64,000 nucleotides of DNA from Takakia lepidozioides (taxonomy: Eukaryota; Plantae; Bryophyta): positions 22,940,001 to 23,004,000 of the forward strand of contig CM060734.1 in the NCBI GenBank assembly GCA_030704615.1. The letters are read 5' to 3'. Below, piece by piece: positions 10,800-48,529 of the stretch (position 1 is the stretch's first letter; every line of letters begins with the position of its first letter). Below the pieces are notes generated by a model. The model saw only the letters and a list, made by a program, of their open reading frames with translations. It was not told the origin of the DNA and did no database searches. A program made the translations under genes and the position numbers.

Positions 10800-11780
10800 C
10801 CCCCTCCCAAGCTTCATCCCCGCCGTCCCTTCCTGATCCACGTGCCGACGATCCCCCGGTACACATAACCCCGTGTCCACCACTCCCGCTGATCCCCTTG
10901 TCTGACTGATCCCCCAGCTCCAGGGGATCTGCGCCGTCCCCCCGACACCCACGTGGCACCCATCGCAACGATCCCCCGCGACCCTGTGTCCCAGTGTCCC
11001 CCACTCCTGCTGATCCCCTAGTCTGATCCTCCAGCCCCGGGGGATCTGCGCCGTCCCCCTCATGCCCACGTGGCACCCATCGCGACGTTCCCCCGCGGAC
11101 CTGTGTCCCAGTGACCCCCACTCCCGCTGATCCCCTTGTGTGACTAATCCCCCATATCCGGGGGATCTGCGCCGTCCCCCTCATGCCCGTGCCACCCATC
11201 CCGACAATCCCCCGCAACCCTGTGTCCCCGTGTCCCCCACTCCTGCATATCCCCTTGTCTGACTGATCCTCCAGCCCCGGGGGATCTGCGCCGTCCCCCC
11301 ACACCCACGTGGCACCCATCGCGATGATCCCCCGCGACCCTCTGTCCCCGTGTCCCCCACTCCCGCTGATCCCCTTGTCTGACTGATCCCCCAGCCCCCG
11401 GGGATCTGCGCCATCCCCCTCAGGCCCACGTGGCACCCATCGCGACGTTCCCCTGCGACCCTGTGTCCCACTGATCCCTTGTGTGACCGAGCCCCTAGAT
11501 CCGGGGGATCTGTGCCATCCCCCTCATGCCCACGTGCCGCCCATCGCAACGATCCCCTGCAACCCTGTGTCCCCGTGTCCCTGATCCCCCGACGCTCACT
11601 GATCCCCCATAGCCGGCCAATCCTTGTTGTCCCCCTAGATCCGTGTCTGGACCCCTGGTGTCGGCCCCGTGTCCCCCGCTCATGCTAGATCCCCTCCTCT
11701 GATCGATCCCCCAGCCCCGGGGATCTCCGCCGTCCCCCTCGTACCCACGTGCCACCCCCTGCCAAGATCCCCCGACCATG
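10800..11780. repeat. GC-rich ~120-bp tandem repeat array (about 7 units)
   Basis: The core ggggatctgcgccgtccccc...cccacgtggcacccatcgc recurs at ~10923, 11040, 11161, 11280, 11400 and 11503, with a degenerate copy at 11718. Confidence 0.9.
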
Positions 11781-11949
11781 TCCTCGGCCCCCGCAGTCTG
11801 ACCGTTACCCCACAGCCTGTTGCTGATCCCCTGCCTGTCTGATCCCCTCTTCATCGGCCGTCCATTACAAGCATTCATCCAACGGTCATAGAACACTCCC
11901 GCCTGTTGGGTCTCCGAGATGGACGGAGGGGATTGATCCCGATGTGGGG

Positions 11950-12276
11950 TGTCAAGCTATTTTACCACTAGTGTGAAACTAGCTAGGAAATAGCTAGTTT
12001 TTACATATTGACATTTGGGATTGGCCCAAGTGTCAATCCAGGGGTCAAGGCAGATTTAGGCCCTGGAGTGGTTATCTTCACGGCAAGCGCGGGAGGCTCA
12101 TCTTTCTCGAGTTGAGCCTCACCGCGCCTAGCTATGGTGCCGTAGTGTGGATTCCCCATGGCGTGGGGTGCACTTGGCTTGACTTGTATTTGAGTGATGA
12201 GTTTATATATGCATGAGTTTAAGCTTCAACTTTGTGAGCTCGCATGAGCTTGTGCTTGTATTCTTCTTCTTTATCA
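11950..12276 (+). repeat. Repeat A1 (3' portion, R/U5, of the LTR), 327 bp
   Basis: Matches 22668-22994 with 6 substitutions counted by eye, all transitions. Ends ...ttatCA. Confidence 0.95.
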
Positions 12277-12292
12277 CTCGAGAAAGATGAGC
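12277..12292 (+). promoter_or_regulatory. Putative self-priming primer-binding site
   Basis: ctcgagaaagatgagc directly after the LTR end is the exact reverse complement of LTR bases 12096-12111. No TGG-type tRNA PBS is present. Confidence 0.75.
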
Positions 12293-13809
12293 TCGTATCT
12301 GTAAGTGCCAGATACGAGTTAGTTGTAGCACTTGTGGTTTTTGCTTGAGAATGAGAGAAACCAGGTTGTTATGCAAGGAGCACCGTGGAGCTCTTGGTTG
12401 TTAGAAGCGGAGGCGATGTGGGTTACGAGGTAGTAGACCTTGGCATTCGATCTTCAGCTTCAGAGATGAAAACATCATGCTGCAGGTAATTCCAGAGCAC
12501 CTTGATGGTTTCAGATTATGTACATGCATGAGCAAGCACGATTGGGAAGAGGACCAGTCAAGAGCAGGTTAGAGTGGCTTTGGTGGCAAAGCTGAGAACT
12601 GGACTTGGGAATGCGAGCTTTCATTGTGTGAAGGATTGCAAGACCAAGCGAAAGGGCTGATTTGGCTTGGGGCAAATCAGTGCACTTTGTGGAGTATGTT
12701 GAGATTGGGTTTCAATCTCGAGCTTCAGCATTGAGAGGGCTCTTGTCATGACAAGAGCAGGGCTGGAACATGAGCTAAGAGGTGCGGCAAGGCCATGGAA
12801 TGTGTTTCAGAGCTTGGAAGAAGAGCTCTTGCACCACAAGAGGAGTGTCTTGTGGCTGGAAATGTAAGCCTTAGGGTTTCAGGAGCTTGGCAAAGGCTGT
12901 GGAGTGCTTAGTCTTGTCTTAGAGAGCATCAAGGAGCCAAGGAGCCAAGATAGGGGGCTGATACCTCTTGTGTGAAGAGGTTGCATGTGTGGAGCATGTA
13001 TTCAGCTCATTGAAGCTTCCATCTTCAAGCTTAGAGGGCAAACAAGGAAGATGGAAGGGCTGACTTCCCTTATGTGAGGGCAATGCATGTGTGGAGCATG
13101 CTTTCAGCCTGTTGAAGGCTTGTACTTTCAGGTTTGGGAGTGCAAGAAAAGAAGGAAGGGGCTGGTTCCCCTATAGGGCATGTGTGGAGCATGCTTTCAG
13201 CCCGCTGAAGCTTGTATTTTCAGGTTTGTGGGTGCAAGAAATGAAGCAAATGAGCTGATTCTCTTATGGTGAGAGTGGGGCATGTGTGGAGCATGCCTTC
13301 AGCTCATTGAGGCTCTTGTTTTCAAGCTTTAGAGAGCTAGAACGGAAGGGCTAGGGCTGGTTTCCACTTGGGGTGAAATAAAAGCACTTGTAGGGCCTAT
13401 GTGAGTTGGGGTTTCAACTTCAAGCTTGAAGGGAGCACAACTCTTGAAGCAGCAGGTGCAGGGGCTGGATTAGGTGCAAAGGGCATGCTATGGTCAAGAA
13501 AAGCACGTAAATGAGTGCCTACAAGGGCTGGAAGTCAGCCATGTTTGGTTAGTTGCCATAGGGATCAATGACGTTGTTTTGTGAATTAAAAGGAAGCTTG
13601 TGCACTTAGTTTCGGTTGCAAACATCTTCTTTTGGAATTAGAGCTACTATTGGTGGTGTGTGGGGGCCATAAAGAGCAAGAATACCTTGTTGATTTCCTC
13701 ACAGCCGCCATAGCTCGGTGCAAAGAAGCCTAGAGTCCAAGAGACACAAACCCTAGCTTGGCGTGGCTAAACCCCTTGGAGAAATGACTAAATTGCCATG
13801 AGTGGCCAT

Positions 13810-14170
13810 GGATGGGGCTGTGACAGGCTGTGATGGGCTGTGAGGGGCTTTGACAGGCTGTGCCCTGTGGCCTGTGGGGCTGTGACGGGCTGTGATCTTG
13901 TGACCTGTGTAGGGCTGTGACAGGCTGTGACCTGTGGCCTGTGGGGCTGTGACGGACTGTGATGGGCTGTGAGGGGGCTGTGACGGGCTGTGACAGGCTG
14001 TGGCATGTGGGGCTGTGATCCTGTGACCTGTGTAGGGCTGTGACAGGCTATGACCTGTGGCATTTGGGGCTGTGATGGGCTGTGGGCCTGTGACGGCTGT
14101 GACCAGTGATCTGTGTGGGCCTGTGCTGGTCTGTGGTGGCCCGTGTTGACCTGTGGACGGCCTGTGCTGA
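13810..14170. repeat. GGCTGTGA/CACAGCC-rich degenerate minisatellite in the retrotransposon leader
   Basis: Dense ggctgtga and cctgtg units. Confidence 0.85.
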
Positions 14171-14776
14171 CTCGTGGAGGCACTGGTGGACTGCCTAAGG
14201 ATTGGCATGTGGTCTTGAAGGCCGAATTTTGACGCTTGTGGAGGGCGGTTTGAGGAGTATCTTCATGATATTCCCATGGCCATGCAAGTGAGGGAAGAGA
14301 GGAGAGGAAGAGTGTTGGGATGAGGGCATGCTGGGGTTAGGCATTGCTTTAGCTTCTCTTCCTCGTAGTTTCCACCCTCTCATTAGGCCAAGACCTTTCC
14401 GTAGGTGGAGGCAAGAGTCTGTTCGGGTTTGGGCTAGGGTGTCCTTGCAGGAGCAACGCCGTGGAGTTGTTTTTGGTGTGGGGGAGTTGTCGTTCTGATT
14501 TTTTGTGTTTGGATCCCCTCCATACCTGCATGCTTGACTGTGCGCCATGTTAGTTTTGTGTGGGCGCTTGTTTTTATAGGTGATTGGTCCGGATTTGATC
14601 ACCGGCCAGTCCTACCATAGGAGTGCTTGCGGTGGATGCAGGTGCAGGTGTAGGCTATGTTAGGAACCTAGTATTCCAAACCATAAGCCGCAACAGGTTC
14701 TCTACCCGGTTACCTTGTGGAGAGGGGGTTAGGGACATGTTCATGACCGGTTGAGTGACAGTTTGTCAACACGGAG

Positions 14777-16301
14777 GTGCCACTAGTTGCTGGGGACAGT
14801 GCAGGTTCGAGCACTAGCAATACTAGTGGGTACACGAGACGAGGTGTGCGGTTTAGGCCACCTTCACCTCTTGTGTCTTCTACGGAAGGTTCTGATTCGG
14901 ATTGTGAATCAGGAGGACTCACACCGGCGGTGCAAGTTGTTTCCTTGCCATTGTTGTGGGACACAATGGAGGAGATGTATGGAGCTACCAAGGGGCCACG
15001 AAGGTACTCTGGGGTGGTGGGCACCATCGAGTTGGATGATTTTATCCAAGAGTTTGATAGTTGGTGTGATTTGCAGCAAATGCACAATCCACAACTATTT
15101 ACGCCTTTCATGGCATGGAAGGGGCTGTTTCAGCACCTTGAGGGGCCGCCTATGGATGATTACCATGAGTTCAGGCGGGGGCATGAGGTTGAGATCGAGG
15201 AGTGGAGGATGTACTGGTCACCCGACTATGTCTCCATCACTAGGGGCACTAGAGCCACGAGGGCATTGGCTACACCTGCCGCTGCACCGGCAGCTTCAGC
15301 AAGCAGCAGTGGGACTGGTGGTACAGTAGCTACGACGTCCACCCAAGCCACTACCGCACGAGCACTAGTACCCGTGCCTGCCTTCAACCCTGTTATGGAG
15401 TTCTTCGAAGAGTTGAGAGGGAACTACCAAGGGGTGAGGACAGAGAAGTTGCAGAGCTTGCAAGAGTTCCAACGGAAGCCTACTGAGAGCTTGAGGGAGG
15501 CTTTCACTCACATGAGGCGCTTGATAAATGTAACCCAAGGGGTTACGGAAGCTCAGGCAGTCCAATTTTGGTATGGGAGATTGGACAAGGAGCTGAGGAG
15601 AAGGGTGCGGGATGCAACTCTCCTACAAGCGGCCCAACCCACTTTAGCAAATGTGTTTTTGCTGGCAGAGCGGATAGAGCTCAACATGGTGGAGGAACGA
15701 GTGGTCATGGTGGGATTTGCTAAGGAGACACCACGGGGTAGTGGTGCTCCTAGCCAACCACTACCTCAACGTGCTCAAGGCAACAAGGGGGTCCAGGTGA
15801 AGCCCAGGGAAGGACAAAGAGATGCAGGGGTCTCTCCCTTCATTTGCAGGCCAACAACAGGCGGAGGTGGTGTGTTGGACATGTGGAGGACCCCATGTCA
15901 AGAAGGATTGCCCAGAGGGAGGCAAAGGGCCAGCATATGCACAGCCTGCACAGTTGCAGTGTGGGCATTGTGGCAAGCACGGGCATGGAGAGGCCCAGTG
16001 TTATGGTTTGCATCCTGAGTTGCGCCCAGGCCAGTTCCAAGGGAACAATGGTGGCCGGGGGCGAGGTGGAGCAGCCCAGAGAGGACGAGGTGGCCAGGCA
16101 CGGGGTGCAGGCCAAGGGCAAACTCAACATGGCCAAGGACGCGGAGGTCAGGGTGTTGACCAAGGCATGGCCAACCGGCTTCAGCAGCTAGAGCAGAGGC
16201 TCGCTGCCATGACTACAGCTCATTTGGTACCGGCTCCAATGCCGGATGGTCCACCTCCTGCTCCTGAGGGAGGAGATATGGGAGGCATGAGATTCATGTG
16301 A
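14777..16301 (+). pseudogene. gag: gag of the DNMT-Gypsy element (frameshifted)
   Basis: Capsid-like FQRKPTESLREAF...QFWYGRL. Knuckles CWTCGGPHVKKDC and CGHCGKHGHGEAQC lie in the overlapping ORF 15822..16301. RGG-rich tail. Confidence 0.85.
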
Positions 16302-16824
16302 TTCATGTGCGGAGCAGCACTACCACTAGTGCAGGTGGAGTCTGCTGCAGCCGTGACTCGAGGAGCAGCACGAGTTCCTGAGCCACGAGGTGCAGAGGTG
16401 GAGTTGGATCCACAGCAAGGGGAGGCAAGCTGTCAGGCTAGGCTTCCTCAGTCATTCACATTGGCGGAGACAGTGTTGACGTCATCCATGGCACCTAGTT
16501 CTCGCCCGACTGTTACCGAGGCGGAGGTTACTATGCCATTGGGGAGAGCTACACGGGCAGCATCACTACCTAGTGTTGCCAAGGCTACGGCAGCTAGTGT
16601 GCTGCTAGGAACGGCCATATCTGTGTGCCAGGCTCCATTGTTCTTGGCTACCATGATTGCGACGCCGAGGGTAAGACCAGCTGAGGTGTTCAGGCTACAC
16701 TCTGTGAGAGTGGGGAGGTTACTTCATCTTCTGCAGAGATAGTGGGAGGTGTAGTGCCGGAGGGATCCTCGGATTTGAGGGTCAGACTGCCGCGGCGGCG
16801 CCATGGCAAACTGCAGCTGTCAGG

Positions 16825-17330
16825 TTGATGGAGCTGCCAGCTAGGCCAGCCATTGAGCGCACCATGGTGACACCTGGAGTTGTCATGTTAGACAACCAGG
16901 ATGGCAATTTCTGTTTGAGTGGACCGGCAGGCAAGAGGTACCGGCCACTGCGGGTCTTGTTGGACTCGGGAGCTCAGCCATTGATGCTGGGCAGAGCTGC
17001 TATTGCAGGCTTGGGCCTCACATAGGCGGATATGGAGCCTTATCTTTTCCAGATACAGACGTCTCTAGAACGATCGGAGCATGCTTGGGGCATGACACGG
17101 CATGAGTTGGCTATCAGACTACGGCCGGATCACCCTACAGATGGCTCACTGATGCAAGCCAAGGCCATTGTGACAAACGCGGTCTCGTACGATGTCCTGG
17201 TTGGTGGGGCAGTGTTGTACCCCATGGGCTTCACCCTGGATTTTTGGGAGGAGTCAGCTTCCTATAGGCCTGGATGGCAGTCAGGGGAGGGCTGGCGTGT
17301 GCAGCTCCCTGTGACGTTCATAGGAGGAGT
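16825..17330 (+). pseudogene. pol: Retroviral-type aspartic protease domain
   Basis: VLLDSGAQPLMLG active site and downstream YDVLVG motif. In-frame stop at 17023. Confidence 0.85.
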
Positions 17331-17658
17331 TGCGGTTGCCCAGCGGGGCAAGATGCCGACACTAGCAGCATTCACAGCTGCAGTGACTTGGCCTAGAGAG
17401 TTGTTGGATGGCAACACTCATTCAGAGGATGTGTCACCTCCGGGAGAGCAGGATGACATACATGGTATGGCAGAGTTGCCTTCCATGGTTGCTTATACTC
17501 CATTGTGGGGCTTGAGCAAGGATTTGCAGCGGGTTGCTGATCAACGGGTGCAACAAGCCTGGATAGAGGCTTTTGTACTGTCAGGAGAGGATGACAGTGC
17601 GGGGATTGCACCAGGACCACCTCAGTTGTCACCATTGGACACCACACCGATCGTGTGG

Positions 17659-17864
17659 CAGTATCCGGATGAAGGCATTTGTCTTCTGGACTTGTTTGGC
17701 GGGATCAGCACCGGATTGGCTGCTGTGTTACAGGTAGGTGTACGAGTTCGGCGTTACTTGTATGTGTAGAGGGATGAGACTGCACGACACGTTTCACTTC
17801 GCCATGTTGCTCAGTTGGTGCAGCAATACCCTGAGTTGTTGCCGGTGTCTGCAGTTCGTGGAGC
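17659..17864 (+). pseudogene. C5-cytosine methyltransferase, N-terminal part (SAM-binding motif I), in frame with the protease
   Basis: EGICLLDLFGGISTGLAAVLQVGVRVRRYLYV*RD (FxGxG-type motif I plus the motif II region). Confidence 0.85.
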
Positions 17865-19300
17865 TTCCCCGTAAGCTTGTCTGACTCCATCAACCACTTG
17901 AGTGGCTGGTGATCCGTGACAAGGGTGAAGAGATTGCCGTATAGATAGCACCTGAAGTGTGTCACGACCCACACTGCAGCTAAGCACTCTCCCTCATATG
18001 AGCTGTACTTAGCCTCTGCAGCGTTGTTCGAGCGGCTAGCATAAGCCACTACGAACTCTCTTCCCTCATCATCCACCTGTGTGAGCACCGCTCCAAGCCC
18101 CAGCATGCTCCAATCCGTATGCAGCTGAAAGGGACGCCCCTTGATAGGTCGTCTCAGGATAGGCGCCGAGATCAACCTCGCCTTGAGCTCTTGAAAAGCT
18201 TGTTCCTGCTCATCTTCCCACTGCCACTCCTGGTCCACCTTGGTCAGCTTGGTTAGAGCCTTTGCAATGACACTAAATCCCTTGACAAACCGTCTATAAT
18301 AGTTTGCCAACCCCATGAAAGCTCGAACTCGGCTCACATCCGTGGGGCGTGGAATTTGTGCAATGGCCTCTACCTTAGTCTGCTGTACCCCCAATCCTCC
18401 AGGATATATCATGTGACCCAGATACTCAATCTGGTTGTGGAAAAACTTGCACTTCCCCGGATGCAACTTCAATCCGCGCGCTCTCAAGCGCTCCAATACC
18501 ACCTGAAGGTATCTCTCATGCTCTTCCATCGTAGCATTAAAGATGATGATTTCATCTATGTAGCACCGAGCAAAGTCCACCCCTGCTAGAATCCTATCCA
18601 TGACTCTTTGAAACTCTGCAGGAGCATTCTTAAGCCCAAATGGTAAGAACCGCCACTGATATAGGCAATCCTTGCCGTGCTCATTGATCCCCCAGAATGC
18701 CGTCTTCTGCTTGTCCGCCTCCTTGATCGGCAACTGGTGATATCCGTGAACCACCGGAACTGAAATGCGGCCCCGCATTTCCGTCCGAGTCGTAGCTTCC
18801 GGCATTCCAGAACGGAAATGTGGCGCCGCATTTCCATTTTGTATCTGTGGCATGGAGCTATGGGACGGAAATGCGGCACCGCATTTCCATCCGGGGGAGA
18901 CCTTCATACTCTCGAGAACATCGTAAATCCAAAGTGCTAAAGACCTTAGCATGCCCGATGGCATCAAAGATCTCCTCTGGTGTTGGCATGGCATACTTAT
19001 CGGACTTGGTCTGACGATTTACAGGCCGGTAATCACCGCACATACGTCTCTCTGTCCAATTGCCATACACATCCTTCTTGGCTGGCATCACTGTGGCTGA
19101 AGCATACTCTCCACCTGAGAGCTCCACCAAACCAGCCTCCCAGAGATCTTGAGTCCTCATCTGAATCAAAGACCTCTCCATGTCACTGTATCTATAGGGT
19201 CTCCGAAAGATTGGTGTGTCAGTGGCCAACTCAATACGAATCTCTTGACCCTTCAGTGCTCCCAAGTCCTTCAAACTGAAAGCAAAGCAATTCCTGCAAG
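17865..19300 (-). pseudogene. pol: Reverse transcriptase and RNase H of the DNMT-Gypsy element (inside the inverted segment)
   Basis: RMCGDYRPVN, STLDLR/GYHQ, LPFGLKNAP, CYIDEII (YxDD decayed), LHTDWS, YSSYEGECLA, TDHQPL. Confidence 0.92.
18747..18919. other. ~170-bp insertion in RT with three ggaaatgcggcNccgcatttcc hairpins
   Basis: Interrupts LDLR|GYHQ and shifts the frame. Palindromes at ~18762, 18813 and 18866. Confidence 0.75.
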
Positions 19301-19719
19301 CCCTCAGGAATCGCCGTATACATCGTCTCTCTCCTCCGGTGACAATGGGTCCAATGTCAAGCTCCCAATTGTCCTCCGTAACTGCAACCTTAAGTCCAGT
19401 GGGCTTAGAGGTAGAGGACGCGTCCAGTGGTTGCTATGTTGCAACCTCTTGAGCAGTACTCCCTGCCTGCTCAGTCAATGACAAGGCCTCATCCTGCCCC
19501 ATCATCTCATCCTCGAGGACTTCCTCAACCCGAGAAAAATCCCCTGCAACCTCATCTATCACCGCCGCCCTGGCTGCCAACTCCCTCTGAACTTCAAGCA
19601 CCTCCCACGTGTGCCATGGATGTCTGCACCCCGTGGTCCTCTCATGCTCGCCCCCACGCACTGCCTGTACCGTCTCGGTAGGCAGAGAGACCATCGAGGG
19701 AAGTGTACTCCGCACTCTG

Positions 19720-20492
19720 CGTTGCTCAGCCATAGCCAAGCTGATAATCCAGGTCAAGCAATTGAGATCCATTGCTTGCCCCAACACCTGACGACGTGAT
19801 GCCTCAGAAAGAGATGGCACCGTCGTGGTACCAGTGGTAAAACCCATTGCCCGCTCACGCTCGTCAGCATTAGGCTCCACTAACTGTTGTAACTGAGCAT
19901 CCCACAGGAGGCCAGGTCCACTATCCCGGAAAGCATGCGATCTTGGGAAGCTGAGCAGTGTAGGTAATGCTGCTCATGGTTGACCCACCTTGTTGACCAC
20001 TGCCAAAGGCAAACGGTCATCGTGTCTCACACGCTGAGACTGCCTCCCTGTGTCCAAAATGCTATCCACTGTGAGGTGTGCTGGCCGCTACACCCCATCA
20101 AATGCACGCTTGAGTAGTGCGGGTGGCATCAAGTTAGTCCACCATAGCCGTGGACGATGAGCCCGTGACCCCACTGTAGCTGCATCTAGCAACACTGCTG
20201 ACCCAAGCCACGACCAAACTTGATGCACACTGGCCATCACCCTGGCCCGAGAATCGCCCATCAGTGGCACATTCTCCAAGATGTATGTTGGAGATACAGC
20301 TTGATGAAGCTACAAGTGGCGCAAAACCCGTACCATCTCCCAAAACAGACCCGACCTTGAGTCTCGCAATCCATTGCCATGCCCGGCTGATGAATGCCCT
20401 TGGCAGGGCCAACCTGCCACTACCAGATCAATGGAGCCAACCCGCTCCAAATCCTGCGCCCCCAGCAACGAAATGTCTGCTGGCAAGGCCTG
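19720..20492 (-). pseudogene. C5-cytosine methyltransferase catalytic part (motifs III-X), DNMT3-like
   Basis: ADI (III), IDLVVAGWPCQGHS (IV, catalytic PC), RSGLFWE (V), ENV (VI), DAATVGSRAHRPRLWWTN (VII/VIII), ERERAMGF (IX), RRQVLGQAM (X). A few stops and frameshifts. Confidence 0.9.
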
Positions 20493-22229
20493 CTTGCACG
20501 GTGGGCACTCATACTCCGGGAGTATGACTTTCAGGTTGTGCATCAACCGGGTTTGGTCAATCGGGATGCGGATGGATTGAGTCGCAATCCATGCACGAGC
20601 CAGCAGGATGACACTGGAGCTCGGTGGCATGGTGAGACGGACGAGGAGATGGTGTCGGGATGGCATGCATCTGCCTTTTTGTGTATCTTGGCATCGGGAG
20701 GTCAGGTTGGACCTACAACAAGGATGACTGTAGACGGAGTGTCTGAGGACCCTGAGGCTAGTGATGAGCCAGGTGGTATCTAAGATATACATGAGGATTC
20801 GGCTGTGTTGGACTACCTCCGTACTGGAGACACGACAGCCACTGTGACTGCTAAGGAGAGGGATCGGATCCTGCAATGAGCCAAGAGGTTCAAGTGGGAG
20901 GGGATACACCTGCTCCGAGTATGGGAGGATGGTCGGGTGAGGATTGTGCCTCATCCCACACAGCGTGCACGGTTAGTGCGGCATGCCCATGAGGAGTTGG
21001 GGCATTTTGGAGTGCGACGCACTCACAGTTTACTGCAGGGGCAGTATTGGTGGCGTGGTATGCATACAGAGGTGCAATAGTTCGTGGCTAGGTGCATGGT
21101 GTGTGACAGGGTGCGTGCTTTATTCAACGCCCCTACACCACAGTTGCATCCTTTACCAATCATGGGATTGGGCTACAGGTGGAGTCTTGACTTCGCAGGA
21201 CCGTTGCCACTGACTATGCGCCACCACAGATATGTGTTGGTGATGGTGGAGCACTTCTCCAAGTGGATTGAGTTGGTTCCATTGCCTGACAAGGCTAGTG
21301 AGGGGGCTGCGTATGCATTCTTGGATTGTGTGCTTAGCCGATTCGGTGCTCCAGCTGAGGTACTCACGAACCAAGGGAGAGAGTTCTTGGGGAAGTTTCA
21401 GGCTTTGTGTGATAAAGCCTTGATAGACCACCGCACCACTTCTCGGGATCATCTTGAGGCCGATGGCTTGGCAGAGCAAGTTGTTCAGACGGTGAAGAGG
21501 GGTTTGCGCAAGTATGGCTTGCAAAAGGGATACCTAGGAGATTGGGATCTTCAGGTGCCTTGGTTAGCCATGGGCTACAAGTTCAGCAATCAAGCATCAC
21601 TTGCCTCTTTCTCACCATATTTCCTTCTCTTTGGCCGAGAGCCGGATTTGCCTGCAGCCATTCGTAGGGACACTGCTCAAGTCCTTAACCTTGACAATCC
21701 GGACGTGTGGGTACGTGCATATGATCAGCGTGCAGAGTTGTTCAAGAAAGTCATGCCCATGGCTTTTGAGAACCTTGCCATTGCACAGCACCGTGATACG
21801 TTGAGGTATGCCACTATACGTGGTGGAGGATATCGTCCTGGGGTTCGGCAATTTAGCCTGGGTGACTATGTTTATTTGCAGCAGACTGCTCCTTCGACCC
21901 TGGATGTCACTGCAGGGCGTGTTATTCTGAGGGTTCGAGAGGTGTTGCCCTCAGGAATCCTGATCTTGGAGGGTCGGGATGGCATGACTTGGAAAGACCA
22001 TGTGCGTAATTGTGCGCCATGTCACCTTCCCAATGTCGATGGCAGAGTTGACCCAAACTTGGCAGTGGTACCTGCAGGTTTGAGGTGCATGCTCTGTGGG
22101 TCAACCAAAGGGGCAGCCACCATGCTGGTGTGTGATCGATGCTCAAGAGGTTGGCATATGGGATGCTTGACACCACCTCTTGAGAGGGTTCCTGATGGAG
22201 ATTGGTTATGTCCACACTGCTTGGGATAG
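20493..22229 (+). pseudogene. pol: RNase H end, DDE integrase and C-terminal PHD finger
   Basis: LARWALIL, NRDADGLSR, HEELGHFG...CMVC (HHCC), WSLDFAGP, TNQGREF, DGLAEQ. PHD CMLC...CDRC...WHMGC...WLCPHC at 22086-22220. Confidence 0.92.
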
Positions 22230-22478
22230 TGGCAGTGGACATGACTAGAGGCAACTAACAAGACATAGGAGGCCGAGCTCATAGGAGTCAATACACGAGA
22301 TCCTAGGCTCAAGTTCACAGGTTGCAAGACGGTGACTAACGATGGGGCAACTCTTGCACCCGACCTCTTGATCTATCGAGTTTGAGTGTAGTAGGGACAG
22401 TGGTGGAGGACTTAGTGAGGCTATGGTCACTATCACATCTTGTGGCTACCTAGACTTAGAGGGACCTAAGCACCAGCT

Positions 22479-22488
22479 AGGGGGGCGA
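22479..22488 (+). promoter_or_regulatory. Polypurine tract
   Basis: aggggggcga immediately before the TG at 22490. Confidence 0.75.
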
Positions 22489-22489
22489 T

Positions 22490-22994
22490 TGTGTGGACTA
22501 GTGACTGCCATAGTGGGCAGCATAGTGGCAGCCTAGTGACTGACTAGTTGTAGCCTAGTGGTTGGACTAGTGGTGGACTAGTGGTATACTAGTGTGTGGC
22601 GTGCACATGTGTTGTGTGGTTTTGGACAACGATGTAGTTATGTAGCGATATGTATGCGCACGACAGCTGTCAAGTTATTTTACCACTAGTGTGAAACTAG
22701 CTAGGAAATAGCTAGCTTTTACATATTGACATTTGGGATTGGCCCAAGTGTCAATCCAGGGGTCAAGGCAGATTTAGGCCCTGGAGTGGTTATCTTCACG
22801 GCAAACGCGGGAGGCTCATCTTTCTCGAGTTGAGCCTCACTGCGCCTAGCTATGGCGCCGTAGTGTGGATTCCCCATGGCGTGGGGTGCACTTGGCTTGA
22901 CTTGTATTTGAGTGATGAGTTTATATATGCATGAGTTTAAGCTTCAGCTTTGTGAGCTCGCATGAGCTTGTGCTTGTATTCTTCTTCTTTATCA
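22490..22994 (+). repeat. Complete 3' LTR (B1 + gc + A2), TG...CA, 505 bp
   Basis: Preceded by the PPT. Its A half equals 11950-12276 and its B half equals 22996-23183. Confidence 0.85.
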
Positions 22995-22995
22995 T

Positions 22996-23183
22996 TGTGT
23001 GGACTAGTGACTGTCATAGTGGGCAGCATAGTGGCAGCCTAGTGATTGACTAGTTGTAGCCTAGTGGTTGGACTAGTGGTTGGACTAGTGGTGGACTAGT
23101 GGTATACTAATGTGTGGCGTGCACATGTGTTGTGTGGTTTTGGATAACGATGTAGTTGTGTAGCGATATGTATGCGCACGACA
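22996..23183 (+). repeat. Repeat B2 (second copy of the LTR 5'/U3 part, placed after the 3' LTR)
   Basis: Near-identical to 22490-22665 plus a 12-bp internal duplication. Ends cgcacGACA. Confidence 0.93.
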
Positions 23184-23298
23184 CGGGTTTTGCTAATGTT
23201 ATCAAGTTTCCGCGTGTTTCCTACTGTTCTCAAGTCTACGCGTCTTTGCTACTCTTGCGTGTGTGTTCTGATGCTGTTCTTGCAGGTCGCCGTGCATC

Positions 23299-24197: not shown

Positions 24198-25009
24198 CTA
24201 ATGAAGCCGTCACAAAAAAGACACATGTCAAATTTATGTTTGCACACGCCAAGAACCCAAAACAACCGCGCAAAGGAACAGCTGTCCCAAATAGGTTACG
24301 CTATTTTCACTGTCACGTACGTTCAAGTATTGGACACGCAAGAAGGAATCAAACGGTTCCAGGGACACTTCCAAAACGAAGGGACCCCGGAAGAAAGCGA
24401 GTCTGTTCATCATTCTTGTTTCTTAGAGGAAGAGAGGAAGTCAAGCTGAAGAGGGTTCCTTGTTCGGTTCGGAAGAGGAGGAAATCATTGTATTTTACAT
24501 CGGTTAGAGAGAGGCTGAGATCAAGAGAGCAAATGACGAGGCGTCGCATGCAAGATAGTGCAACGCTTAGGCAGCATGTGAACTTGGAGACAGATCAAGC
24601 AGAAGAGCATGTAGGAAGTGAGAGTGAGGTCGTCGCAGTTGCAGCAACGGCTGGAGCAGTGAGCGTAGGTAACCAAACAATGCCAGCCGAGTTCATGCAC
24701 GAAGACAACACAACAGAAGGAGAGCAGTGGATGCCATACCGGGATGAAGTCAGCAAACCCTACATCAGACAAAAATGGTGATCATTCAATATCCGCATAA
24801 TATTGTTATCATTAGTCTTGATGTTTTCCATTCCATGTGGGATCAATACATTGTTTTTTCTTATGTTCAGACCGATGAAAAAGGGAAGAGGAAAGCTGCA
24901 GAGGGCGATCCGAGCGATGCAGCCACGAAGCCGAAGAAGGCGAAGGGATCCATAAGTTCTCTCAAACGCACTTCTCCCTCTTTACTGATAGTCCCCCGAT
25001 GTGAGAAAA

Positions 25010-26515
25010 GCGATGATCAGTGGCGATCGTCGCTTTACAGAAGACTGTAGTTGGTGTCTTATTTCAGCAGATTCAGGAAGTTCGGCAGGCAGGAAAGAAT
25101 ATATATCAAGGCGAAAGTGATGATCGGTGCCGACCATCACCTTCGCCATTGCTTTATATAAGCAAAGAATGCGATGTTCATTGTGATTCAAGAGTGACAG
25201 GGAACTAAAGACGCATCTTGCAATGACGTCGAAGCGATGATCGGTAACGATCATCGCTTTGAGGTCCATTCCCTTCTTGTTCAGAACAGTTTAGAAATGG
25301 CGTGGTCGTTCAGGAAAGTGATGATCGGTACCGACCATCACATTCAGCTCCCATTGTTTGTGCATCCCTTGGCACTTAAATAGTGATGGTCGGTACCGAT
25401 CGTCACTTTCGGCAATGACTGCATGTTAACCCAAAATCCTTTCTCGCATTGGAAGCCTTTGTACAATGAAATTCTTTAGGTGGAGAAATGTCCATTCAAC
25501 TTCATATTTGGAATTGGAGAAACAGCAAAGTGATGGTCGGTGTCGACCATCGCCTACAAGTCCATTTCTATGCTCTATATCTCATACAATGAAAATGCAG
25601 AATTCTGTTGTGAAGTGATGATCGGTGTCGACCATCACATCCAGACCTCATGGGTTGTGCTTCCCAAGGCAGTCTGATTGTGATGATCGGTACCGACCAT
25701 AAGTGTTTGAACGGTTTGGCAATACACCAGAATCCATAAAAGGAGACCAAGTTCAGTGGGTGAAAGAAAGGATTCTGACTAAGAGTGATGATCGGTGCCG
25801 ACCATCACACTCAGACGTCATGGGGTTCGCTTCCTAATGCAATCTGATTGTGACGATCGGTACCGATCATCACTTTTTGAACAGATTGGCAATGCACCAG
25901 AATCCAAGAGAGGACATCAAGTTCAATGTGTGATAGAGGGGATTCTGACTTACAGTGATGATCGGTGCCGACCATCACATTTAGACCTCATGGGTTGTGC
26001 TTCCCAAGGCAGTCTGATTGTGATGATCGGTACCGACCATCACTTTTTGAACAGATTGGCAATGCACCAGAATCCAAAAGAGGACATCAAGTTCAATGAG
26101 TGATAGAATGGGTTCTGACTTCTAGTGATGATCGGTGCCGACCATCTCATTTAGACCTCATGGGTTGTGCTTCCCAAGGCAGTCTGATTGTGATGATCGG
26201 TACCGACCATCACTTTTTGAACAGATTGGCAATGCACTAGAATCCAAAAGAGGACATCAAGTTCAATGAGTGATAGAATGGGTTCTGACTTCTAGTGATG
26301 ATCGGTGCCGACCATCACATTTAGACCACGTGGGTGTTTGCATCCCAATGCTGTCTTGTGGTGATGTGCGGTACCGACCATCGCTTGCATCATCCTGATG
26401 GTCGGCACCGATCATCGCAGTCTAGTGAGAAAGAAGTCAAGGTGCATTGGGAAACCAAGTAGGATTTCAATTCATTTGTTAGAAGACAAAGTGATGGTCG
26501 GTACCGATCGTCACT
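25010..26515. repeat. Array of 24-bp palindromes GTGATGRTCGGTRCCGAYCATCAC, partly organised as 170-bp tandem units
   Basis: About 18 copies between 25010 and 26515. Four ~170-bp units (two palindromes each) at ~25615-26320. Further copies at 28442, 28578, 28673 and 29944. Confidence 0.92.
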
Positions 26516-26583
26516 GTGTTAAAATGTCTGTTTTCCTGAACACCAGTTGAATGTTGCTGTTGTGGCGGTTTTGGGTATGCAGA

Positions 26584-29500
26584 AGAATGTAAAGTCCAAG
26601 CAGGCAAAAACAGATGCAAAGGGCTGTGGAGAAGGGGACGACTCCACAAAGAGTTCTGAGAACAGCGGAGACACTGACGAGCCTGAATTGCACTACCTTG
26701 ACAAGGTGAAACAACTTATGTCATATCAAACGGTAAATTCCCAGGAGGTTATTAGGGACATGATCGTCTTTGGAGGACGTCTTGAAATCCCTCTCTGCCG
26801 GATGATCTCCATGCCTGTTGTTCGTCCTCCACTTTCGCATGACATTACCAAGTTGGAAACAGATTTCGTGCACGGGTATAGAATGGGTGCACAAGTTTTT
26901 TACGTCTCACTGAAGGATACTAATGGTCACAGCACAAAAGTGAGCCCAGAGATTACGGACAACTGGGATGATTGCTGGAAGGATGTGAATGACGAGTTCG
27001 AAGACTCTCTGCTGCTTGGACATAACACCCAGCAGTTCTGCAACCACATGTTCTATGTCTGGGACGGGAACCATCGCTTGCTAGCTTGGATGGGGTACAT
27101 TGCGAAACACCATTCAAAAGACAAGGACAAGCATTGTGCTGTGGAGGCAATGGTTCTGGATCCTGGGAATGACATCGCCAGACTTTTGACAGCTATGCAT
27201 GACGTGAACAAGTAGGACTTCCTCAGAAACCCATAGCCTTTCAAATTGCATGTTGTGCGCATTTCAAGTCCAAACGTTAAATATTTCTTACGTATGCAAT
27301 GTGTATTCCCTGTTTGCAGATCGACAGAGAAATCACATGTTACTACGAGCCTGGTCCACACACTATTCCGCATTCAGAGAATTGGTTTGATGAAGCTTGA
27401 TGAGTTCCGCACAGTGCTACATCCTGATGTCATCAAGAAGTGCGAAACAGGAAGATCTGCAGGGACCTGGTACTCGTTGACCCGAGATGCATTTTTGGAG
27501 TACATGTATGCGGTATGGCCCAAACCACTTCTTCCTATGTTATTACATACAAATTTGCAATTGTATGTCTGCTAATCCAATCGTTGATACTTGCAGCAAG
27601 AACTGGCAGAGGCCGCCGAGAGGGGGAAATCTGAGTACTACCGCACTACAGTAGAAGAGTTGAGGACTGCTAAAGGAGTTGGAGCAGCCATAAAGAAGGA
27701 GTACGAGATAAGGAGAACGAAGCTGATGTCGGCCTTCCTGAAGCAATTGAGAATAGTGGATCCCGGACTTGGGGAGGAGTTCCTTCTCCAAATCAAATCC
27801 CACTACGACAAGCATGTACATCCAGAGATGCAACAGGAGAAATTGCACAGGCTGGCTCTCTCTATGGTTGACAACCAGACAAAAGTGAGATGGCTTGAGA
27901 TTTGGAACTCGAATCAGACGGTGAAGGATCTGAATCAGTTCCCAAAAAGCACAATCCAGCCTGGCACCAAGGTCGAGGGAATAAGTGATATTGTTTTTTA
28001 TCAGTGGCTTCACAAGGCCACATTTTGGAGTCAGGTATTTGTGGATTCAAGTACCTGTTGTATATGAAATATCCTATAGCTTTGTCATGCGCAATTCTGA
28101 TACATGTTCCCATTGCAGCTGGAGAAACGCGCCATTCTTGTCCTGGAGCAGAATTTGAAGGACTTGAATATTTCGATGGTCTCACCACCACAGATGACCT
28201 TGGAGGCGTACATTAGAAAGTGGAAAGGTCTCACGTGGCGGTACTGTTTCTTGCAAGAGTTCTCCAAGGATGGCAACATATTGAGGTCGAACGATTTTGA
28301 CAGTCAAGTTGGAGGGGAGTGGGCGATGATGCGTGTTGTTTACAGGTGCAGTGCCATATGCCTATCCAGCACATTCTTTAAACTTTTGTCATGCCTCATT
28401 GAGAGAAGCTTTGTATTTCTTTTCTGCTACACAGCAGTTTGGTGATGGTCGGTACCGATCATCACATCCACTGCTATGATATTCTCCAGTCAAACAGTTG
28501 TCACTGCTGATCATGTCTTTGTTTCCATCCTTAATCCTGCCTCTGTTATCATAGGCAGTCTGTTTCTGATGAATGAAGTGATGGTCGGTTCCGACCATCA
28601 CATTTCCCATTTGTGCAGTCTACATAATCATAAGGATTTTCCAACCCATGTTGCATTCTCTCTCATGTGAAAGTGATGATCGCCACCGATCATCACTTTC
28701 TTCTGCTTTCTGATATCTTGTTTTGGGGGATGGTGTTATTTTGAGCCTCCGCAGGTACACTAAATATGTGTTGATGGAAGGAAAACACCTGAGTGGAATC
28801 CCAGATTACCTGGACATGTGGTCCGATCCTGCCAACGATCCCACCATGTACACAGCTGGTATCTTGAGGGACTGGAGTCCTGCCCACTTCAGGGACTGTG
28901 GATGGTACCTCGACTGCCCTCCAGAGCACACGACATTTCAAGAGCAGCAAATGAACAACCATGCGGAGATGCTGGCACCTTTGAACGACGAAGAGTACCA
29001 GAGGAACATTGCTTCATTGGCCGCCAAGGAGCCAGACGCGCAGGCAACTCCACAGAAAGGCAGGAAGGCGGGTCGAAAGGGGAAAGATCCAAAGGCTCCG
29101 GAGGTAGTAGCCAAGTCACCTGGGAAGCCTAAGGACAAAGAGAAGGAGAAGGCTAAGGGGAAGGAGAAGGCGAAGGAGAAAGAGACGGAAAAGGAGAAAG
29201 GTGAGGACAAGGAGAAAGATGAGACCGCTGGGAGGTACACCCTCACTGTTCAATGTCCATTCGATGCCAAGCCACACCCTTCCCGTGCGGACTTGGCAGG
29301 GCAGATCAAGATTGTGAATGAGGGATGGCTGGCGATGATGGAGACTCGGAGAAAGAGTTACTCGGGGGTGCCATCACCAACTTGGGATAACATGATTTCA
29401 TTTCTTAATCTGGTAAGAATCTTTCTCTTCACATGGGACTTTCGAATTTTGTGTATGCCAATGTAGATGATGGTTTCTGTTGGGACCCTCATTTCTGTTT

Positions 29501-30850
29501 GACTTGAAATTATACCGGTATGCTGCAGGTGAGCAATGGTCCCTCATTCGTATGCGGTGTTCAAAAACCCTTTGCCGCTGACATGGTCATCCTTGACATC
29601 CCAGACGGCCTGCCTGTCCCCGACGTTCCTCCAAAGGGAAAGACTCCATCCTGGAACAGATTCGATGAGAACTACTGGAGTTGGGTATTCGGCTTCTGCA
29701 ATAATTTCCTTTCAGATGTAGGAACGCTTTTGCTCTTCCAGTCATGTGATAAGGATAGTCGTAAGGGTCTGGCATCATACCTGAAGTCGTCTGGGTTCGA
29801 AATTCTGAGGACATGGAATTGTGTGAACATCCTGTACCTTCTGAAAGGTGGTTGCCCTGGACAGCTGGTATGGCACCGCCCTACTCTGAACTGTTTCCCA
29901 ATGTCTTTTCAGTTGTTTCTGCTGGCTTGCTCTACCACCATATGTGATGATCGGCACCGATCATCACAAAAACATTCCATTGTAGTTTACATTTGCAGTC
30001 CATGTTCTGTTCTTTCCTGCGCCAGAATTTCTTTCGAATTTCTATGTCTCACTCCTACCTTGCATCTTTGCCAGACAAGGATGTTTGAGGCAATTTGCCT
30101 AAGGCGGATTTGCACTTCCAAAACACCTTCATCCGTTCGCAGCTTTGAAATTTCCGACCAAGGGTGTTTTGTCAACCCCCCATATGAACTGCATGTGGAT
30201 GACATGCTGTACAATTTCATGCACTCCAGTCAGACAGCCAAAAGACCAGACTCTTCCAGTTTGCATCCGATTTTGCATCCTCTACAACCTTCTTGAGGCT
30301 TTCTGTCTTGGCAGGTGCAACTTACCGTGCTTGCAAGGTTGGTGGGAGAAGCCTTTTTGGCATGGAGGGCGACACCGAACTATTCAAGAGTGTCCTCCTC
30401 CCTCTTGTGTTTGGCTCTACGTCTGGCACACAGACCAAACAAATTCAAATCAGAAATGATGAGGATACCGAGGATAAGCAGATCGACAACGACTTCTCAT
30501 GTGAGTAAGTCAGCCATGGAAATGTCATTCCAATTTGGGTGCTTGTTCAATTTTGCATACATCAAAATTGCAGTAATAACTTTTATCATGCTTTGACTTG
30601 TAGGAACGACAGCGATGGATCTTCAGGAGAAACCCCCATTTGTGCTGAGACTGTTTTCGACAGTCCCCTTTCCACTTTTGTGCTTCTTGTCTATGCCGAA
30701 GCAATGGCACTTGAAATGGCCGAGGCTCTATCCCCTGACTTCTTATTGCCCGATCGCAGGAGTAGCCATCGTAGATCCGGAGTTCTGAAATTCTTGGACT
30801 TGGATGCAGTGGACGCGGGGATACATTGTACTGACTCTAGATCAGACTGA
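26584..30850 (+). CDS. Spliced gene: ParB/Sulfiredoxin-like domain + helical region + K/E-rich linker + degenerate beta-class N6A/N4C DNA methyltransferase-like domain
   Basis: Exons 26584-27211, 27320-27512, 27597-28034, 28119-28345, 28755-29412, 29529-29867, 30075-~30258, 30315-30504, 30604-30850, joined in frame by GT-AG introns. Motifs VRPP and FYVWDGNHRLLAW (ParB/Srx), ADMVILDIPDG (DPPY position), FLSDVGTLLLF, GATYRACKVGGRSLFGMEGD. Probable upstream exons at ~24533-24748 and 24871-24955 could not be phased. Confidence 0.72.
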
Positions 30851-32263: not shown

Positions 32264-34336
32264 TGTTACAAACCATTAACAAAGAGATGCTGGGAAGAGT
32301 CAATGCCAATAAGTTAAAGGGATATATTGGTATCCATGACAAACCATTGCAGCACGATTTGCATGTTGAAACGCAAAAATAGTCACGGGCTGCGCCAGTG
32401 ATACCAACGGAGTATGGAGCACTTGTCGCTAAGCCGAGCGTATATGACCAGGGCGGGAAGTACAAGTATTCGCATAGCTATCACAACCCAACACTGCGTG
32501 ACACAGCCTATCACAGCCCAACACAGCGTGACACAGCCTATCACAGCTCATCACAGTGTCACACAGCCTATCACAGCCCACCACAGTGCTACACAGCCTG
32601 TCACAGCCCAACACAGCCCAAGCAGGTTACACAGTCCATAGGGTCAGTGACAGGTGAACGCGGGTTAACGTCAAAAAAGTGGCCATCAAGTGAAGAAGAA
32701 GTTTGGAAGTCAAACTTGGAGAATATGCCACGCGGAGAGGGGAAGTCGGGGGCATGCTTAGAAACGGACACGTGGCCACTAAGGCGAAGCACACCGCACT
32801 GCATCAATTGCAAAAGAGGGTTTCATCATGCAAGTGGACAAATTGGGCCGTCAAAGTACCTACCCGGTACAGCCGCTAAGACTATTTGTGGGCCCATTAA
32901 TGCATTCAAAGTAAGGGTAACGGAACACTTTTCGAGTACAGAAAAGAGGAACCTATGCCACATGTGCTGTCCTACTGGACATTCCAGGTGGGAATGTCCA
33001 CGGAGAGGAGTGGAATTAAGAAGTTACCTAAATAGGCAACGGCCAATCAGGAGTGCGAATTACGTGCAGGTGGTTTCCTCCAAGAAACAAGAACAAGAAA
33101 TAGGAAGTATTATGAGCGGAAGAGTCGGGGTGGCTCCGAATAGCCAGTGTCTCGACGGAAGGGGCAATCAAAGCACTAGCTTTGTAGCTATGGTGGATGT
33201 AACGGATTACACATTCGCTTTACTTCTTACGCAGTGGCGCAAGGACGGACGAATTGAGAGTACATTTTCTCTCACTCGATACTTGCAAGCCCAACAGGCT
33301 TACTGTCGAGCGGCTTTTACTCACCCATCCCTTCGCTATCCAAGGTGGGAACTCTAAGATAGAAGAGTTGGAAATCTCTAAGCACTCAGACCGCTCAGAA
33401 CAATCAGTCATGACCTACAGCTAGTGTATCATGGGGGTGTTTCCTATTTTTACTCCTTCCCGCATTCATGTTAGCGAGTTACCTTACTGTCTGCAATTAA
33501 GTATCAGTTTGCTTCAGAAATCTATCAAGTTCCATCCATTCATTCCACAGCTTCACTCAGGTCTCTCTACACAGTGTGAGTATGAAGTATGTATCAGATT
33601 AATATTTATCAAGTATCAGGCTGAAGCCATGGTGTCTTTAATCTACTCTACATTACAATTCTACAGCTTGCATTCATTAAGTAACAACAAATCGTCACTT
33701 CTCCTACTCCGTGCTCTTCATCTTTCCACTCAGAGATGTGCTCTCCCCTCTATTTTCCAAGCCGTGATGCCAGAAGTCCCCCCCCAAGAAGTGATCCCCA
33801 GACGTCCCCGCTCTTTGCTTTATCTCCCTACAAGCTGTTCTAACTGCTTTCCTAACTAACCGTCATCCCTGTAGTACACGTTCTTTTTTCAGATGTCGTT
33901 CCCCACAGTCGTTCCCTGCCAATGATAACTGTCCCCCAGCTGTGCCGAGCTGTGACTGGCTGTATCAGGCTGTGGCGGGCTGTGATTGGCTGTGTCGGGC
34001 TGTGAGTGCAAAGCTGTGGCGGCTGTGTCGGGCTGTGATTAGCTGTGTCGGGCTATGTCGGCTGTGCAAAGCTGTGATGGCTGTGTCGGGCTGTGACTGG
34101 CTGTGTTGGACTGTGACGGGCTGTGTTGGCTATGACTGGCTGTGTTGGACTGTGACGGGTTGTGACGGTTGTGTATCTCCCCCCCTAAAGCCTGTTGCTG
34201 TCACCCCTAAGGCTCCTGTTGGTCTCAGTCTGTGTAAAAATTAAGGGTACCCCATAGATCCTGTAAAAGCGTCTAAGTCCCAAGCAGCCCTCTAACATTT
34301 ACCCCTCCCCCTCTCAAAAAGCCGTGTCCTCACGGT

Positions 34337-47366: not shown

Positions 47367-48529
47367 ACCGTGAGGACACGGCTTTTTGAGAGGGGGAGGG
47401 GTAATGTTAGAGGGCTGCTTGGGACTTAGACGCTTTTACGGGTTCTGTGGGGTACCCTTAATTTTTGCGCAGACTGAGACCAACAGGAGCCTTAGGGGTG
47501 GCAGCAGCAGGCTTTAGGGGGATTACACAGCCCGACACATCCAGTCACAACCTGACACAGCCCGCCACAACTTTACACAGCCCGTCACAGCTTCGCACAG
47601 CCAGTCACAGCCCGCCACAGCTTTGCACAGCCAGTCACAGCCCAACACAGCTTCACACAGCCCGCAACAGCTTTACACAGCCCGTCACAGCTTCGCACAG
47701 CCAGTCACAGCCCGGCACAGCTTACACAGCCCGGCACAGCTTCGCATAGCCAGTCACAGCCCGACATAGCTTCACACAGCCTGTCGCAGTACATAGGGAA
47801 CGGTTATCATTGACAGGGAACGACTGTGAGGGAACGACATCTGCAGAGGGAACGTGTTACTTCAGGGATGACGGTTAGTTAGTTAGGTGGTTAGAACAAC
47901 TTGTGGGTAGAAAAGGAGAGCGGCAACGGGAAGGGGATCACTTCTAGAGGAGGGCGACTTGTTCAGGAGTGGAAGAAACGTAACGGAGAGCAGGAAACAG
48001 TGTAGAGGAGATGATGACTTGAATGAGGCTTAGTTCATGCAAGCTGTAGAATTATATTGTAGGGCAGATTAGAGTCACCATGGCATTGGCCTGATACCTG
48101 ATGAATCATAATTTGATACTTATACGATACAAACACACTGTGTAGAGAGACATGAGTGAAGCTGTGGAATGAATGCATGATTAACCGGAACTTAGTAGAT
48201 ACTGAAGCAATCTGATGCTTCAGTATACACGGTAAGGTAGATTGATAACATGAAGGCAAGAAAGAATACAAATAGGAAGCACAACCATGATACACTAGCT
48301 GCAGGTCATGACTGATTGTTCTGAGCGGGCTGAGTGCTTAGAGATATCCAACTCCTCTATCTTGGAGTTTCCACCTCGGATAACGAAGGGATGGGTGAGT
48401 AAAAGCCGCTCGACAGATCCCCCTAGTGAGGTTTGCACACTGACCCCCCCACAAAACTTTGACAACACCAATCCCCTAAATGAATTTTGTAGACATTGTT
48501 CCCCCCAGTAAAACTTTCAAAACACTGAT

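Follow-up and report, generated by a model that had tools for sequence, protein, structure and literature searches.

A window of 64,000 nucleotides from the moss Takakia lepidozioides (contig CM060734.1, positions 22,940,001 to 23,004,000, forward strand; all coordinates below are positions within this window) contains, at 11950-23183, a decayed Gypsy retrotransposon that encodes gag, protease, a DNMT3-like C5-methyltransferase (MTase), reverse transcriptase (RT), RNase H, integrase, and a PHD finger. An earlier note, made from the sequence letters, had placed the element at 16825-22229; the core domains do lie inside that span, but the element is larger. Once 17865-20492 is re-oriented, the order protease-MTase-RT-RNase H-integrase-PHD that had been proposed there is recovered, and Pfam scans of 11 pieces of the window, a check that the note had suggested, gave matches to DNA_methylase (E = 3e-11; 20313-20495, minus strand), RVT_1 (2e-24), RT_RNaseH (7e-26), rve (3e-11), and PHD (1e-10).

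On the plus strand, gag (14966-16700) marks the start of open reading frame 1 (ORF1); it has a zinc-knuckle-like region and small indels, matches Retrotrans_gag at E = 0.008, and is homologous to Marchantia Mp4g09160. The aspartic protease follows on the same strand (16888-17280) with a DSG motif at 16963-16971 and one premature stop; its Pfam match is weak (E = 0.094), and relatives match the protease at about 40-70%. The N-terminal part of the MTase, recognized by motifs I-II and by relatives, continues in the protease frame at 17677-17862 (plus strand). An inverted block, present in this copy only, then spans 17863-20494 (edges ± 2 nt) and carries on the minus strand MTase motifs IV-X with the tail of ORF1 (19437-20495; GWPCQ at 20400-20414; three premature stops; identified by Pfam, Protein Data Bank (PDB) matches, and fold), as well as RT and RNase H of ORF2 (17865-19433). 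Back on the plus strand lie the RNase H C-terminus and the DDE integrase (20492-22076), in which the second catalytic D is replaced by N, and the C-terminal C4HC3 PHD finger with the ORF2 stop (22077-22229), fused to integrase as originally described. The copy is indeed decayed, with eight premature stops between 16708 and 22229 in addition to the gag indels; in RT the motif YIDD is changed to YIDE, and in integrase TDQG is changed to TNQG.

For comparison we used relatives in protein databases, public sequencing runs, and 80 DNA loci that had been fetched by their MTase. Contigs from three of four sequencing runs connect 17862 to 20492-20495 with a change of strand, which shows that other copies lack the inversion; about 5 nt were lost at the left junction. 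A 5009-bp contig from another organism (run X13) reads colinearly from MTase through RT, RNase H, and integrase to PHD, as do the other copies; the inversion is thus specific to the window copy, where it may have arisen in the genome or during assembly. Another copy (L079:7287-11512) is likewise inverted internally across RT/MTase, so such rearrangements recur in the family.

All six MTase motifs listed in the earlier note were present, motif I on the plus strand in the protease frame and motifs IV-X on the minus strand in the inverted block, and the MTase is intron-less and shares the frame of the protease. We compared a stop-free relative (P0016) with 36 PDB sequences; DNMT3A ranked first (6e-12), followed by DNMT3B/3C, DRM2, and, weakly, M.HaeIII. 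The AlphaFold model of P0016 (predicted local distance difference test, pLDDT, 88; predicted template modeling score, pTM, 0.89) matched DNMT3A at E = 6e-19 in a structure search, and all listed matches were DNMT3 structures. Resting on these sequence and structure matches and on a motif order that is not permuted, the predicted class of the enzyme is DNMT3, as the note had proposed, rather than DRM, DNMT1, or bacterial Dcm. The C-terminal piece of the MTase alone had no Pfam match. Across 27 aligned relatives, the glutamate of motif VI and an arginine of motif VIII were invariant, and the catalytic cysteine of motif IV was nearly so.

The proposed check for neutral evolution instead pointed to purifying selection on the MTase, with a ratio of nonsynonymous to synonymous substitution rates (dN/dS) of about 0.1 between stop-free copies (L061/L065: 0.12; L061/L066: 0.11; L065/L066: 0.10); for many pairs dS was saturated, and their ratio is an upper bound only. 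Between the window and the moss group, the proportion of nonsynonymous differences in the MTase was 0.18 and that of synonymous differences was saturated. Near-identical, decayed moss copies gave dN/dS values of 0.38-0.47, as expected of dead copies.

The earlier note had further described a writer and a reader in one polyprotein, and in that form this part was not borne out: the MTase closes the gag-protease frame, and a conserved in-frame stop precedes RT-integrase-PHD. In the window this stop, TAG CAA CCA (19428-19436, minus strand), ends ORF1 and is a predicted type I readthrough signal by comparison with the loci and with the UAG CAR YYA motif described for tobamovirus (PMC3542737). We considered the TAG itself (19436-19434, minus strand), lying between MTase and RT, as a product of decay and rejected this, since the stop is conserved family-wide. 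This comparison draws on the window copy and on loci in other hosts: among 64 loci spanning motif X and the start of RT, the in-frame stop with CAR-YY after it was seen in 56, a looser match in 4, TAC in 2, and none of these in 2. The stop recurred in six divergent groups, namely the window (CAACCA), L038 (CAACCA) with L070/L071 (CAACTA), the main moss group (CAACCC), L061/L065 (CAGTTA), L066 (CAATCA), and L069 (a looser match); the full UAG CAR YYA motif was found in the window, L038, L070/L071, L061/L065, and L066. L061 is naturally intact, with a 1369-codon frame, a single TAG CAG TTA, and a 1047-codon frame, and many ORF1 proteins in databases end about 97-152 amino acids past motif X. The simplest reading of these sequences is that Gag-protease-DNMT would be the major product and RT-RNase H-integrase-PHD a minor, predicted readthrough extension. 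MTase and PHD would then share a chain by readthrough only, the MTase would be made at the level of Gag, and many copies of the enzyme per particle are predicted.

The ends of the element are organized in an unusual manner. Repeat A1 (11950-12276; 327 bp, TGTC...CA) forms the left end of the integrated element and differs from A2 (22668-22994) at six positions, all transitions; repeat B1 (22489-22665) precedes A2, and B2 (22995-23183), ending in GACA, forms the right end, all on the plus strand. The insertion is flanked by a 4-bp target-site duplication (GGGG at 11946-11949, CGGG at 23184-23187). Directly after A1 is a primer-binding site (PBS; 12277-12292, plus strand), and directly before B1 is a polypurine tract (PPT; 22479-22488, plus strand) that is conserved in the loci. 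The 17-nt PBS is complementary to the middle of A (12096-12112, plus strand; 17/17 as reverse complement), which suggests Tf1-type self-priming (mechanism described in PMC6317226) with a predicted RNA 5' end at this position. Of 14 moss loci, only 7 had their best covarying match at this self-priming site (A position 167-169), and a similar site further into A competes with it. The Ty3/Gypsy order gag-protease-RT-RNase H-integrase with a DDE integrase is thus accompanied by PBS, PPT, and target-site duplication, and two complete long terminal repeats (LTRs) at the termini are absent; the repeats are split as A...B-A-B or A...B, so that at its ends this is not a canonical LTR element. We also tried and rejected the 327-bp pair as ordinary LTRs, given that it has no matching duplication and no PPT before A2, and two nested elements, given that independent loci show the same layout.

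The A...B-A-B layout recurred in L033, L057/L058 (one insertion), and L068, with its 3' part in L001, L009, and L023, and the A...B layout in L016, L041, L050, and L074. Such A...B copies, which lack the second A-B and retain the 4-bp duplication, occurred at about the frequency of full A...B-A-B copies, and may have arisen by direct integration or by B-B recombination. We also observed B-only 3' ends (L026, L030, L031, L040, L042, L047, L060). In all eight independent insertions with two flanks, the window included, 4-bp duplications lay immediately beyond the start of A and the end of the last B (perfect in 4, with a single mismatch in 4; the chance of a match at ≥3 of 4 positions is 0.05 each). 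The element ends are TGTC...GACA, and the B/A joint holds both ends head to head with two bases between them, as the palindrome GACA-GC-TGTC (22662-22671) that, by comparison of loci, is the predicted integrase cut site. The spacer was GC in 6 of the 10 joints read, and the core ACGACA-NN-TGTCA was retained in the distant L061 and L066, whose MTases are ~51% identical to that of the window. At the A2/B2 joint, the end of A is joined to the base that immediately follows the PPT; in L068, filler was found there.

The PHD finger had its top PDB matches in CHD4, KDM5B, PHF12, ATXR5, and KDM5A, and also resembles PHF21A. It has a glycine at the position of the cage tryptophan of H3K4me3 readers, and the group that it resembles (CHD4, KDM5B/5A, ATXR5, PHF21A) is one that we take to read unmodified H3 tails. 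By analogy, a PHD-driven bias of integration away from active promoters is predicted. PHD-retrotransposon fusions are known in general from the published record.

The family extends well beyond this copy. Named relatives came from Marchantia polymorpha, M. paleacea, Riccia, Calypogeia, and four Sphagnum species, with more distant ones in Closterium, Klebsormidium nitens, and the chlorophytes Hariotina, Scenedesmus, Haematococcus, and Monoraphidium; the nearest named MTase was that of the liverwort Calypogeia (75% identity). No vascular plant was seen among the named matches, which are a minority of all matches. A profile search returned 622 clusters at E = 1e-30 or better; among the best 150 of these, 32 had RT-RNase H-MTase-integrase-PHD in one ORF, and about a dozen had the MTase after protease or before RT. 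At the DNA level, MTase and then RT followed in that order in 64 of the 80 loci, and PHD was reached in 24. The sequences fall into two layouts, a chlorophyte type with the MTase between RNase H and integrase and a streptophyte type with the MTase after protease, which occupy two sides of one branch in the MTase tree and the RT tree alike. Support for the streptophyte-type set (window, L011, L038, L061, L066, L069, P0045) was 97/96 in the MTase tree and 97 in the RT tree, and the matching split is consistent with long co-inheritance. The RT tree came from a quick method and had a single outgroup, on a long branch (another, shorter outgroup piece was omitted), so that monophyly of the whole DNMT-PHD group lies beyond its reach. 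P0073, P0094, P0232, and about 30 more proteins encode RT-RNase H-DNMT-integrase-PHD in one ORF and form a large group associated with chlorophytes (Hariotina, Scenedesmus, Haematococcus), in which methyltransferase and PHD do lie in a single chain. In Marchantia, Mp4g09160, Mp6g11220, and Mp8g17980 are element ORFs annotated as hypothetical host genes, and one relative, filed as a bacterial methyltransferase (HEY9806811.1, from an Obscuribacterales metagenome-assembled genome), is probably a binning contaminant.

Taken together, we give a slightly better than even chance to the interpretation that the window holds a member, now dead, of an old Gypsy lineage of green plants, kin to the algal KnitGypsy-Dnmt3, in which the DNMT is likely made at Gag level and likely methylates the element's complementary DNA (cDNA), and RT-integrase-PHD is likely made by readthrough. 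In the life cycle that we propose, the RNA would start in A and prime itself, and the plus strand would start at the PPT, giving a cDNA of the form B-A...B-A in which B+A is the true LTR. The cDNA ends would be joined, forming the A2/B2 joint, and integrase would cleave both strands of the internal palindrome after CA and insert the element with a 4-bp stagger, the integrated copy being a circular permutation. Such cuts would leave 2-nt overhangs, the geometry of retroviral ends after processing. HIV-1 integrase is reported to cleave the palindromic 2-LTR junction internally (PMC1905944). The DNMT would be packed into particles in Gag-like numbers, freed by the protease, and methylate cDNA cytosines before or at integration, in line with the hypothesis of cDNA self-methylation put forward by de Mendoza 2018 (PMC5890265); the PHD finger would bind histone H3 tails and bias integration. 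The fuller claim, that the lineage packages a de novo DNA methyltransferase of its own in coat-protein stoichiometry and delivers a pre-methylated cDNA that, steered by PHD, integrates via the internal palindrome of end-joined cDNA (like IS3-type circle junctions), which would make it the first natural LTR-type element with that as its normal route, is a tentative one that we hold well short of even confidence.

Several observations weigh against this interpretation. The Klebsormidium enzyme did not methylate yeast DNA, a result that its authors call inconclusive (PMC5890265). The observed/expected CpG ratio in the element (0.41-0.53) falls within the range of the non-MTase Gypsy elements of the window (0.30-0.80), so that we saw no sequence footprint of self-methylation in this comparison, and CpG/CHG depletion as such a footprint was rejected for want of a signal beyond that of other elements. 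Since the loci were fetched by MTase, members without it could not be seen. For the stop, a single moss-associated group of near-copies supplies 48 of the 56 strict matches; this largest moss group reads CAA CCC ATG, which departs from the consensus by one base and has an AUG two codons downstream, so that reinitiation or splicing is possible in it, and some algal relatives (P0072, P0243, P0356, P0313) have no stop between MTase and RT. Finally, a symmetric cut of the circle predicts the form A-B-A...B, which was found neither in the window nor in any of the 19 loci with a whole 5' end (two pairs of which are duplicates).

This asymmetry keeps alive a different account of the integration step only, which we regard as possible, if doubtful: reverse transcription would switch templates and rebuild both ends from the internal B/A joint in the style of DIRS/Ngaro, yielding a linear A...B-A-B with split ends and no joined intermediate, which would undergo ordinary end-processing by integrase. 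It explains why A-B-A...B is absent, and the repeat layout is that of DIRS-order elements (PMC5890265, Fig. 4 legend). On the other hand, with a conserved PPT ahead of B1 and a PBS following A1, LTR ends of the form B+A are predicted, and the A2/B2 joint, with its fusion to the first post-PPT base and the filler in L068, looks as it would after end-joining. A host DNMT3 that was captured once and evolves neutrally, or a chimera of the assembly, could be entertained for a decayed copy with near-identical moss copies at dN/dS 0.38-0.47; we give it practically no credence, because the MTase keeps its position across mosses, liverworts, and algae, which answers the question of a one-off capture raised in the earlier note, dN/dS is about 0.1 between intact copies, and the trees are congruent.

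What the enzyme acts on is a separate matter. Purifying selection names no substrate, and expression at a high level with Gag would leave plenty of free enzyme, so an abundant DNMT might act in trans on chromatin, be it at the target site, at resident copies, or at competing elements, or serve as a brake on the element that the host tolerates, and a benefit to the host was already raised by de Mendoza 2018 (PMC5890265). We think this unlikely, though worth keeping in mind: from the general biology of LTR elements, fusion to Gag-protease would bring the enzyme into the particle, the site of cDNA synthesis, and in the main product the DNMT is physically apart from PHD, leaving it with no evident chromatin-targeting module. 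Retention of the DNMT for a non-catalytic or non-DNA role, such as binding nucleic acid in the particle, shielding the cDNA joint, or methylating RNA, would fit the inactivity of the Klebsormidium enzyme in yeast (PMC5890265) and the lack of an element-specific methylation footprint. It is hard to reconcile with the near-invariant catalytic cysteine, the invariant residues of motifs VI and VIII among the 27 relatives, and a predicted fold that is a complete DNMT3 domain (pLDDT 88), and we consider it quite improbable. Methylation of the element's own cDNA is the role that we prefer for the enzyme.

The remaining features of the window are as follows. A long 5' leader (12293-14965, plus strand), covered by family reads, contains internal tandem repeats (12955-13365) and a 10-bp array (13813-14166). 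Arrays of this CTGTGA-type unit also occur at 32431-32684, 33937-34172, 36547-36766, 47495-47789, and 62736-62930, dispersed over several repeat elements of the window. RT is disrupted by a 173-bp, internally palindromic insertion (18747-18919) that is absent from other copies of the element and high-copy in the host runs (112 contigs at one site); it shows no clear terminal inverted repeat or target duplication and is probably a small non-autonomous element. Contig depth summed over the element was about 500,000-1,200,000 compared to 689 in the left flank, which is not a copy count and signals a high copy number. A ~118-bp tandem array (10845-11847) adjoins the insertion site on the left, and a 170-bp array with a short palindromic core (25006-26518) adjoins an ORF region at 26523-30293. 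Other decayed Gypsy elements, without an MTase match, lie on the minus strand at 35580-41560 and 50496-62500, the latter with tandem partial copies.

What DNMTs do in the retrotransposons that carry them has yet to be settled, the only Gypsy case being in an alga with an enzyme inactive in yeast (PMC5890265), and an opinion paper describes transposon-encoded methylases as absent from "land plants, such as tracheophytes" (PMC6338049). The family is now found in mosses and liverworts, and since gag-protease-DNMT ORFs are among the hypothetical genes of the model Marchantia (e.g., Mp4g09160, Mp8g17980), DNMT function becomes testable by genetics. The combination of split ends and true target duplications suggests that this retroviral-type integrase works on an unusual substrate, and standard LTR finders would likely miss or mis-bound such elements. 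The novelty that the earlier note had seen in a land-plant element stands for the presence in mosses and liverworts and is otherwise lower, given a homologous K. nitens protein and kinship to the published KnitGypsy-Dnmt3; a Gypsy-borne DNMT itself is already published for that alga. What is added is the land-plant range, the Gag-level placement that the conserved stop gives the DNMT, and an insertion of the integrase type for split repeats, each of them open to testing in Marchantia. In the literature searched, which covered few subscription journals and Repbase entries, we found no description of the land-plant family, the readthrough stop, the palindrome, the target duplications, or the integration route.

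The closest known system is KnitGypsy-Dnmt3 of Klebsormidium nitens (PMC5890265), which likewise combines Gypsy domains with an intron-less, non-permuted Dnmt3-type domain under purifying selection and DIRS-like repeats (Fig. 4 legend), a layout given as A1..B A2 B in the peer-review file of the paper. The K. nitens protein GAQ93235.1 has the order gag-protease-DNMT, aligns with a Marchantia relative over 569 amino acids (29% identity, E = 1e-54), is homologous from protease through MTase (MTase 36% identical), and falls on the window's side of a branch with a support of 97, apart from the chlorophyte type (quick tree, midpoint root). We infer that GAQ93235.1 is a KnitGypsy-Dnmt3 copy, and its homology and domain order make the window family kin to that element. 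KnitGypsy-Dnmt3 is, however, described as an acquisition of the K. nitens lineage with DNMT and RT in one ORF (PMC5890265), whereas the window family spans land plants, and in the window's subgroup the two share a frame with a conserved stop between them; other relatives have no such stop. In the main text of that paper "PHD" and "protease" have no occurrences, and the single "stop" concerns the decay of a long interspersed nuclear element (LINE). SymbioDIRS-Dnmt3 of dinoflagellates is also a retroelement with a cytosine methyltransferase and is reported to methylate CG de novo in yeast, but it belongs to the DIRS class and not to Gypsy. EpiLTRs (bioRxiv 10.64898/2026.05.21.726589, which also speaks of "streptophytes (Gypsy-DNMT3)") pair a retroelement DNMT with a chromatin reader, a chromodomain. 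Their DNMT is described as DNMT4-related and combined with DAM and the chromodomain, whereas the window family combines DNMT3 with PHD.

Tf1/sushi and Tcn1 chromoviruses have ordinary LTR ends. They resemble the window family in a self-priming PBS (PMC6317226) and in a chromatin reader at the integrase C-terminus; "PHD" and "methyltransferase" have no occurrences in the main text of that source. They differ in having a chromodomain instead of PHD and no DNMT, the comparison being one of features rather than of RT placement. PAT, Ngaro, and TOC1 share the A...B-A-B repeat layout. These elements use a tyrosine recombinase and generally make no target duplication, whereas the window family has a DDE integrase, 4-bp duplications, PBS, and PPT; no tyrosine recombinase match was found in the Pfam scans, the rve integrase being found instead. 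Lastly, gag-stop-pol retroelements (Tca2, VdLTRE5) and tobamoviruses with type I readthrough likewise have an in-frame stop in a CAR YYA context (PMC3542737, PMC3441728). In the window family, by contrast, the stop follows gag-protease-DNMT, which would place an enzyme, and not the coat protein alone, at a high level.

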